Source of the DNA: an uncultured archaeon
GTDB taxonomy: Archaea > Asgardarchaeota > Thorarchaeia > Thorarchaeales > Thorarchaeaceae
Length of the DNA stretch: 32,000 nucleotides
Reading direction: 5' to 3'
Assembly: GCA_964648855.1 (NCBI GenBank)
Contig: CAZYLT010000006.1
Location: forward strand, 60,001 to 92,000
Below are positions 6,921 to 7,984 of this stretch, in pieces (position 1 is the first letter of the stretch; each line of letters begins with the position of its first letter). The notes beneath the pieces were generated by a model. That model did not search any database, had not been told where the DNA came from, and saw only the letters and a list, made by a program, of their open reading frames with translations. A program made the position numbers and the translations under genes.

Positions 6921-7889
6921 ATGATATCTCTTAAGGAAATTGTTAAGAACAAAACTATCAAGTTCATTCTAAGTGGCGGCAAAGGAGGCGTTGGTAAGAC
7001 GAGCTGTGCAGGAGCATTAGCTCTCTTGTCCGCAAGACAGGGATTGAGAACACTTGTTGTGTCGACTGACCCTGCCCATTCACTGAGTGATAGTTTTGAC
7101 CAAAATTTGTCCGGCGGAGACCCCGTACCCATAGATGGCTTTGACAAGCTGTGGGGCATGGAGATAGATACAGAGAAAGGAATGCGGGAGTTCCAAGATA
7201 GTATTGGCGAGGGGGCTGCAGGTCAAGACATGGCAATGGCATCGTCTCTCTTGGGCGATGTCAGCGGAATGGCGCCGCCTGGCTCAGATGAGGCCATGGC
7301 CTTTGGAAAGATGCTGGAATTCATAGAAGACGCATCTTATGATAGAGTGGTCTTCGATACTGCACCAACTGGTCATACCCTGAAGCTATTGGAATTGCCT
7401 GACCTCCTAGATAGCTGGCTTGGAAAAATGCTGACTTTGCGACAGCGCTTGAGCTCAATGATGTCTGGACTAAAATCTATGTTTGGTGGTGCTGAACAGG
7501 ATCAAAGCTCATGGGATATGCTTCAACAGACCAAGGACAAAATTAGAATGGCACGTATTGAACTAAGCGATCCCGATACGACACAATTTGTAATCGTTAT
7601 GATTCCTGAAGCGATGGCGGTCTTTGAAACCCAACGACTTCTAGGCAGTCTGAATGCTTGGAAAATTCCAGTATCCAATATTATCATTAATCAGCTAGTT
7701 CCAGAGAATCCTGATTGTCCATTCTGTTCAAAAAGGCACAAAATGCAGCAGAAGAATCTTGAGGACATTCGTGACCTCTACCAAGATCTCAATCTTACCG
7801 AGGTTCCTCTTTTCGAGAATGAAATTAGAGGAATCGAGGGGCTTAGAAAGCTTGGTAATGTATTGATGAGGGAGGACTCCCAAGAATGA
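6921..7889 (+). CDS. Get3/TRC40/ArsA-family ATPase (single domain, Get3-like)
   Basis: GGKGGVGKT, STDPAHSLSD, FDTAPTGHTL, Met-rich helical insert RLSSMMSGLKSMFGG, CPFC Zn-dimer motif. Confidence 0.93.
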   Translation: MISLKEIVKNKTIKFILSGGKGGVGKTSCAGALALLSARQGLRTLVVSTDPAHSLSDSFDQNLSGGDPVPIDGFDKLWGMEIDTEKGMREFQDSIGEGAAGQDMAMASSLLGDVSGMAPPGSDEAMAFGKMLEFIEDASYDRVVFDTAPTGHTLKLLELPDLLDSWLGKMLTLRQRLSSMMSGLKSMFGGAEQDQSSWDMLQQTKDKIRMARIELSDPDTTQFVIVMIPEAMAVFETQRLLGSLNAWKIPVSNIIINQLVPENPDCPFCSKRHKMQQKNLEDIRDLYQDLNLTEVPLFENEIRGIEGLRKLGNVLMREDSQE

Positions 7890-7984
7890 GATATGCCTTA
7901 AAGAGAAAAATAGTGTCTATACTTTTTGTCCTTCTTTTTCTAGCATCTATGATAGCAGCAGTATATCTACTGTTCAGAGGCTAG
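7886..7984 (+). CDS. Unannotated 32-aa single-TM micropeptide MRYALKRKIVSILFVLLFLASMIAAVYLLFRG
   Basis: ATG overlaps the Get3 stop (ATGA 7886-7889); GGAGG at 7871-7875; basic N-terminus, 22 uncharged mostly hydrophobic residues, then RG; TAG at 7982-7984. Confidence 0.7.
   Translation: MRYALKRKIVSILFVLLFLASMIAAVYLLFRG

Follow-up and report, generated by a model that had tools for sequence, protein, structure and literature searches.

Organisation of the locus

The window, i.e., the whole stretch of 32,000 nucleotides analysed here, carries on its forward strand a gene for an archaeal Get3/TRC40-type ATPase (get3, 6921..7889), a single-domain protein of 322 aa identified by matches to TIGR00345 and to PDB entries. 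It includes a deviant Walker A P-loop (residues 19-27; 6975..7001), a methionine-rich region (residues 170-200; 7428..7520) that aligns with the TRC40 insert of archaeal, fission-yeast and human Get3, and a CxxC zinc/dimer motif (C266-C269; 7716..7727). The stop codon of get3 is overlapped by the start of a second gene on the same strand (7886..7984), encoding a single-pass membrane microprotein of 32 aa. The two genes share the tetranucleotide ATGA (-4 overlap, 7886..7889), and a Shine-Dalgarno (SD)-like GGAGG is located in the final codons of get3 (7871..7875), 10 nt 5' of the ATG. The microprotein has a basic head (residues 1-8), a helix (residues 9-30; 7910..7975) predicted by hydropathy to be transmembrane and conserved in length across families, and a tail of two residues; the codon of Ser21 occupies positions 7946..7948. 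The elements described in the first-pass annotation of this DNA are all present, the transmembrane character being a prediction.

The gene for RNA polymerase subunit P (rpoP; 8001..8144, reverse strand; NF001604, PF03604, family-wide synteny) is convergent and lies 16 nt past the microprotein stop, and the space between get3 and rpoP is almost filled by the microprotein ORF. Neither a hairpin terminator nor a match to an Rfam family was found. On the other side, divergent from get3, is an alkaline-phosphatase-superfamily-like gene of 242 aa (6014..6742, reverse strand), with weak phosphopentomutase/phosphodiesterase matches.

Other genes of the window include one for a B12-binding radical SAM protein with the cluster motif split by a Cys-rich insert (8244-9851, reverse strand), situated between SUI1 and rpoP, as well as those for a Roadblock/LC7 protein (12538-12930) and a two-repeat gelsolin (20839-21435), both on the reverse strand and typical Asgard eukaryotic-signature proteins. 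Consecutive genes for an NYN/OST-HTH nuclease, an N6/N4 DNA methylase and a 479-aa protein with no Pfam match (16763-20835, forward strand) are possibly a restriction-modification or defence insert.

The ATPase belongs to the Get3/TRC40 group

The earlier proposal of a Get3/TRC40-type ATPase was borne out by profile score, CxxC motif, insert and fold matches. TIGR00345 (TRC40/GET3/ArsA subfamily) matched the protein in one stretch as a single domain with 301.8 bits (cut-off 135), and the ArsA equivalog models gave only 130-151 bits against cut-offs of 650-800. The PDB entries 3zq6 and 3ug6 were its closest matches in fold and, when only single-domain proteins are considered, also in sequence; in the fold ranking of the model, M. 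thermautotrophicus TRC40 and M. jannaschii Get3 came first, and eukaryotic Get3 next. These archaeal proteins (3zq6 and 3ug6, respectively; Group 12, PMC6593721) are likewise single-domain and share with the ATPase the TRC40 insert, the groove helices, predicted here at residues 151-181 and 191-216, and the CxxC. An alignment of 69 Asgard Get3 orthologues showed the P-loop, the switch motifs and both C266 and C269 to be invariant; the CPFC motif named in the first-pass annotation is C266-x-x-C269, and its Met-rich insert is reflected in 12 methionines within residues 85-215.

ArsA belongs to the same Pfam family (PF02374), but is a tandem two-domain protein with metal-site cysteines and an ars operon. 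The ATPase has a single domain and three cysteines only, none of them at the ArsA metal site. As stated before, ars genes are not nearby: none was present among the 28 other ORFs of the window that were scanned. A search of the genome recovered neither ArsB nor ArsD; acr3 is present on a different contig.

Eukaryotic Get3 possesses a helix FLSLYETER..QE and an acidic DLYED patch, which we take to be its receptor-binding residues. The Get1/Get2/Get4-binding helix reads AMAVFETQR..GS in the protein studied here, i.e., it has diverged, and the DLYED patch is partly retained in the alignment. Divergence of this helix is expected for archaeal CxxC-type Get3s (Group 12), which are devoid of the Get1/2/4-binding residues (PMC6593721). 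The TRC40 insert by itself does not predict a targeting function; tail anchors are bound by Get3 homologues of archaea, with delivery to membranes recorded for one of the four tested (PMC6593721). Overall, the ATPase is a typical archaeal Get3/TRC40 protein, which may deliver tail-anchored proteins.

Several genomes of Thorarchaeia and other Asgard archaea additionally carry two more distant Get3/ArsA-like genes in tandem, with 30-35% identity (G007:C67, G003:C29, G002:C8 and others); such a pair was not found in this genome with this Get3 as a query.

The small ORF is conserved and under purifying selection

Among the 1587 ORFs of at least 250 aa in the genome, get3 is the single one with a coupled hydrophobic small ORF behind it. 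We surveyed 120 get3 loci of 23 Asgard families. All 37 loci of the same family have the ORF intact directly behind get3, nearly always with 32 codons. The 34 family copies of equal length contain no in-frame stops, whereas each of the five alternative frames is interrupted in 9-33 of them. Majority identity in family copies amounts to 0.71, 0.82 and 0.48 at codon positions 1, 2 and 3, respectively. The pN/pS of the microprotein over 11 close pairs, which are not independent of one another, is 0.21, about equal to the all-pair value of get3 (0.22). Compared with a genome of the same genus (‘Ca. Thorarchaeota’, Get3 NCBI TFG12885.1), the microprotein has 6.5 synonymous and 2.5 non-synonymous changes. 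In two further families, f12 and f15, its pN/pS is 0.43, with synonymous sites saturated, and 0.14, respectively; from these comparisons outside the family of the window, pairs involving L121, which were shifted by one codon, were left out.

The signals for translation are retained as well. In 47 of the 57 loci with the ORF, an SD-type 5-mer lies ahead of the start; it was called by motif match, the assembly having yielded no 16S 3' end for a direct check of pairing. The corresponding figures are 6.9% for control windows within get3 and 7 of 63 for the ends of get3 genes that lack the microprotein. A start/stop overlap of -4 or -1 exists in 21 of the 57 loci, and the gap does not exceed 5 nt in 47. 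The family of the window (f1), f12 and f15 all maintain an SD site within get3 and a short distance between the two genes. This spacing fits the translational coupling claimed in the first-pass annotation, but does not establish a functional tie to Get3, which rests on gene order, and the gene order has exceptions (see below).

The stretch of the small ORF is 36% T and contains a T5 run, which could suggest that it is not a gene but a T-rich archaeal terminator region between the convergent get3 and rpoP. The longest T run, however, ranges from 2 to 7 across the family; since T runs are not conserved, while frame, start, stop, length and SD are retained in 57 loci with synonymous changes in excess, the terminator-only reading fails and may practically be dismissed. 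The checks for a conserved small ORF and for selection, suggested with the first-pass annotation, were run, and the refutation that it had envisaged, a lack of conservation, likewise fails. Comparative evidence of this kind makes it nearly certain that the small ORF is a real protein-coding gene.

Sequence and predicted topology of the microprotein

Four of the first eight residues are basic, and residues 9-30 form an uncharged stretch of 22 residues, whose best 19-residue Kyte-Doolittle mean is 2.83. A single helix no further than about 30 residues from the C-terminus and a basic N-terminus that is predicted to be cytosolic are the features of the tail-anchored class, and the length of 32 aa implies post-translational release. 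Ser21 is invariant in all 57 get3-linked copies and is encoded by TCN in Thorarchaeia and by AGY in the other three families with get3-linked copies; Leu17 is nearly invariant. Both residues lie inside the membrane stretch, and the invariant intramembrane Ser21 points to a partner within the membrane. In the basic head, the charge is conserved and the sequence is not, for which the positive-inside rule alone suffices. Helical periodicity of conservation was not significant (p 0.08 within the family, 0.5 across families). Small, Ala-rich residues at positions 24-26 in Thorarchaeia copies are not kept in f12, f15 and f6, and the C-terminal segment varies in both length and sequence.

Pfam and NCBIfam searches with 42 members returned noise-level matches only, and none of the 42 matched the Prli42 or DUF4044 families at E-values up to 1. 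Similarities to PhrA/NprX peptides (E 0.13-0.17) and of one member to RAMP4 (E 0.35) are likewise noise. None of ten microproteins looked up in a collection of 15 billion proteins was present; a profile search recovered a dozen relatives, annotated as hypothetical proteins, which in both of two contigs inspected are encoded behind get3. The nearest entries in the ESM Atlas are unnamed clusters of 31-35 aa (0.77-0.78). NCBI-derived gene calls omit the microprotein, and we found no description of it in the literature on Asgard or archaeal Get3. By its sequence, it is a protein of the tail-anchor type with a predicted N-in, single-pass topology and of no described family.

Minimal tail-anchored proteins (Sec61-beta/SecG-like, RAMP4/SERP1, regulin-type) are comparable in their C-terminal helix, cytosolic N-terminus and expected post-translational insertion, but differ by the lack of any family match and by the microprotein having almost no cytosolic domain. 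Listeria Prli42, in which three basic residues tether the acidic patch of the soluble protein RsbR (PMC6614362), follows a similar plan of a short basic cytosolic head and one helix; this is an analogy only, as the domain of life and the partner are different and there is no family match.

Distribution in Asgard archaea

The microprotein follows get3 in all 57 loci of five families: f1 (37 of 37) and f2 (1 of 1), both Thorarchaeia, f12 (14 of 14), f15 (4 of 4; Baldrarchaeia by NCBI label) and f6 (1 of 1). It was found behind none of the 63 get3 genes from 18 other families. Get3 is present in 182 of 201 Asgard genomes, and the microprotein was detected, linked or unlinked, in 7 of 26 Asgard families. 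The get3-linked copies are spread over four separate clades of the Get3 tree, which does not resolve the deep order. A profile built mostly from Thorarchaeia copies had its best genome-wide match directly behind get3 in genomes of f12 and f15 left out of the profile, which supports homology across families. The downstream neighbour varies by family, being rpoP, a zinc-ribbon gene with SUI1, or a beta-CASP nuclease gene. Unlike in these loci, no such coupled ORF was found at 77 other Get3/ArsA-family loci, mostly non-Asgard, including Methanobacteriales and Methanococcales. No Get3 residue in the receptor-binding helix was found to separate peptide-bearing from peptide-less families.

Two other candidates were not counted as homologues. 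In an f13 locus (L056), a hydrophobic ORF of 42 aa begins 82 nt after get3, but it was discounted for being antisense to a membrane gene. A 46-aa ORF in f9 (L221:2635-2775, reverse strand; E 0.01) failed to reappear with a wider profile. The latter combines an extended basic head with a single helix at the C-terminus, a frame of the same length exists in a second genome, and it is possibly a distant relative or an unrelated tail-anchored microprotein.

Copies apart from get3 and history of the locus

In f19 (‘Ca. Freyarchaeum’), all six genomes carry a probable homologue of 27-29 aa as a stand-alone ORF (hhalign 95%), in a complete genome 872 kb from get3. A DUF763 gene flanks it on one side; on the other, contigs that extend far enough show small GTPase genes. 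An SD-like site precedes this homologue, and the position of the conserved Ser is occupied by Ser or Thr; pairs with L126 display 5-6 synonymous versus 0-1 non-synonymous changes. Another probable homologue, of 30-31 aa (hhalign 86%) and with Ser replaced by Gly, is encoded about 7 kb from get3 in f21, between a phosphatase-like gene and a beta-CASP nuclease gene. With the wider profile, no further stand-alone copies were detected in 60 genomes of other families, although a query of 32 aa cannot prove absence. These probable homologues away from get3 mean that, as far as sequence similarity tells, the get3-microprotein linkage is not obligate.

The slot of the f21 homologue is the one that get3 and the microprotein hold in f15 and f6; hence, the ancestral locus probably consisted of the phosphatase-like gene followed by get3, the microprotein gene and the beta-CASP gene. 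Thorarchaeia and f12 would then probably have retained get3 with the microprotein and lost the nuclease, and f21 would have moved get3 away. In f8, the sister of f15, get3 is joined directly to the beta-CASP gene; f8, f10 and f4 probably retained get3 near the nuclease without the microprotein. The phosphatase-like gene adjoins get3 or the microprotein in f7, f12, f18, f19 and f21, at least six Asgard families overall, and this recurring neighbour marks the ancestral locus.

Membrane-biogenesis genes around get3

Nine of the Asgard families without the microprotein have a gene for TRAP-beta (PF05753) adjoining the start of get3, in a total of 31 loci (L050:2368-2970, L055:2362-2943, L045:2225-2836, L058, L051, L095 and 25 more loci); PF05753 scored above the cut-off in the six neighbours tested. 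It is co-directed with get3 in most loci and divergent in f22, which includes Hodarchaeum. TRAP subunits are known in Asgard archaea (PMC11417166), and we found no literature report of a TRAP-beta-get3 neighbourhood. Asgard get3 thus repeatedly clusters with membrane-biogenesis genes. In the genome studied here, the sole TRAP-beta match lies within a frame of 562 codons. TRAP-beta and the microprotein never share a get3 locus; a replacement of one by the other is unsupported beyond shared ancestry, as f3, f7, f8, f9 and f13 have neither at get3.

An unnamed three-helix membrane protein of 110-125 aa adjoins get3 in 23 loci of f7, f12, f19 and f21 (L063:1078-1434, L039:4040-4360, L074:2489-2824, L078:959-1426). 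No Pfam or Atlas identity was found for it, and it was not found in this genome.

Two Ylp1/DUF106 genes (EMC3/TMCO1/Get1 superfamily) code for insertases in this genome, one in the adk-ribosomal operon and one alone; the latter may encode a Get3-dedicated insertase. Two paralogues (L210:1471-2046 and L211:1444-1980) exist in all 15 genomes of the family with a match, including this one, and in f2, as against a single gene in most of the remaining Asgard families. That the second paralogue tracks the microprotein was rejected: two are found in Thorarchaeia, f14 and some f9, and one in f6, f12, f15 and f19. The genome further encodes Sec61-beta as a separate gene and an EMC6-like protein of 124 aa without a long N-terminal tether (L219:1390-1764), whose matches to PF07019 (E 0.005) and PF19094 (E 3e-4) are both below cut-off. 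Archaeal EMC6-like proteins are without the Get3-contacting extension of GET2 (PMC8675477). Together with the diverged receptor-binding helix of Get3, this leaves the membrane docking partner of archaeal Get3 unaccounted for.

Possible function of the microprotein

A chain of 32 residues leaves the ribosome before its helix emerges; SRP targeting would hence be impossible and insertion has to be post-translational, which is the job of Get3. We tentatively favour the reading that the microprotein is an optional, lineage-restricted accessory on the membrane side of the Get3/insertase route, itself inserted by Get3. Through coupling, it would be made in a fixed ratio with Get3, chaperoned by it to the membrane and, once inserted, would act at the step in which archaeal Get3 meets the membrane. 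The face formed by Leu17, Ser21 and small residues may pack on a membrane partner, either Ylp1/DUF106 with the EMC6-like protein or the Sec translocon, and the short basic head, facing the cytosol, may dock onto the acidic face of Get3, by analogy with the head of Prli42 on RsbR. Structure prediction for the Get3 dimer with ATP, zinc and the microprotein scored 0.00 in two runs with an uncertain peptide fold and is not evidence either way.

The first-pass annotation had offered three roles, of which a membrane-side partner fits best, a groove-blocking regulator fits badly and a minimal receptor, if meant as a true one of the Get2 type, is excluded by anatomy. Get2/CAML resembles the microprotein in being membrane-anchored, with a basic cytosolic segment that could meet the acidic Get3 face. 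Nevertheless, Get2 has a cytosolic domain of 150 residues with two basic helices (residues 1-40) and a linker of about 110 residues (PMC8530227), as well as an EMC6-like core of three helices (PMC8675477), whereas the microprotein has eight cytosolic residues, one helix and no RERR motif, and the EMC6-like core is a separate gene here. By analogy, it could still work like the basic capture helix of Get2. A bolder version, in which the microprotein would be a separately encoded tether of archaeal Get3 and a minimal functional forerunner of that helix, working with the Ylp1/EMC6-like insertase in part of Asgard archaea and kept in fixed ratio with Get3 by coupling, we consider rather unlikely.

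A close rival to the membrane-side accessory is an operon passenger, i.e., an old small membrane protein with a partner of its own, unrelated to the GET route and maybe an ordinary Get3 client. It would persist behind get3 because overlapping genes seldom separate. In Haloferax and E. coli, -4/-1 overlaps couple neighbouring genes by termination-reinitiation. Genes for subunits of heteromeric complexes are enriched for such overlaps, but among co-directed gene pairs in general no other spacing is more common (PMC10666635). The copies in f19 and f21 are uncoupled; in f21, it was get3 that moved, and the microprotein gene remained at its ancestral place ahead of the beta-CASP gene. The protein is missing from most Get3-bearing lineages, and its motif resembles generic archaeal N-terminal signal anchors (P0050, with weak matches in long ORFs). 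Yet Thorarchaeia and f12 have lost the beta-CASP gene, and there the microprotein stayed with get3 and not with the downstream gene; moreover, f1, f12 and f15 preserved the SD site within get3 and the close spacing. Taken together, we judge a passenger somewhat improbable. The tie to Get3 as implied by the first-pass annotation stands as a linkage conserved in five families, but is not established as a dedicated functional one, given the uncoupled f19/f21 copies and the many Asgard lineages having Get3 without a detectable microprotein.

The status of a Get3 client is likely in itself, but explains neither the linkage nor Ser21. A dedicated cargo, with coupling allowing Get3 to catch an aggregation-prone 32-mer at once for a membrane job elsewhere, would agree with a strongly hydrophobic helix that stops two residues short of the C-terminus, with a size too small for SRP and with tail-anchor binding by archaeal Get3 homologues, one of four of which delivered its cargo (PMC6593721). 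This reading appears improbable: the uncoupled f19 and f21 copies are maintained under selection. Moreover, Get3 is a general and diffusible chaperone, so that a single client needs no gene linkage. Less probable still is a placeholder in the hydrophobic groove of Get3 that would throttle client capture. Coupled synthesis would yield near-stoichiometric amounts and the helix length suits the groove; however, the conserved Leu17 and Ser21 are intramembrane residues, the Get3 groove is promiscuous, the invariant polar Ser21 and the fixed head/helix/tail plan suit a membrane-resident protein better, and uncoupled copies exist. A secreted-signal precursor, cut by signal peptidase after residues 24-26 to free a hydrophobic 6-8-mer, we consider extremely unlikely. 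The signal-peptide-like plan, the small residues of the Thorarchaeia copies and the PhrA/NprX noise matches would speak for it; the loss of these residues in f12, f15 and f6, the variable C-terminal segment and the lack of a cognate regulator nearby speak against it.

Significance

The microprotein overlapping get3 in several Asgard lineages is a candidate for a factor by which archaeal Get3 reaches the membrane, and is of relevance to the question of how the GET receptor of eukaryotes came together. The TRAP-beta-get3 neighbourhood independently supports a membrane-biogenesis role for Asgard Get3. Even if it should prove to be a passenger, the microprotein represents an undescribed family of Asgard small proteins that has mostly been missed by gene callers.
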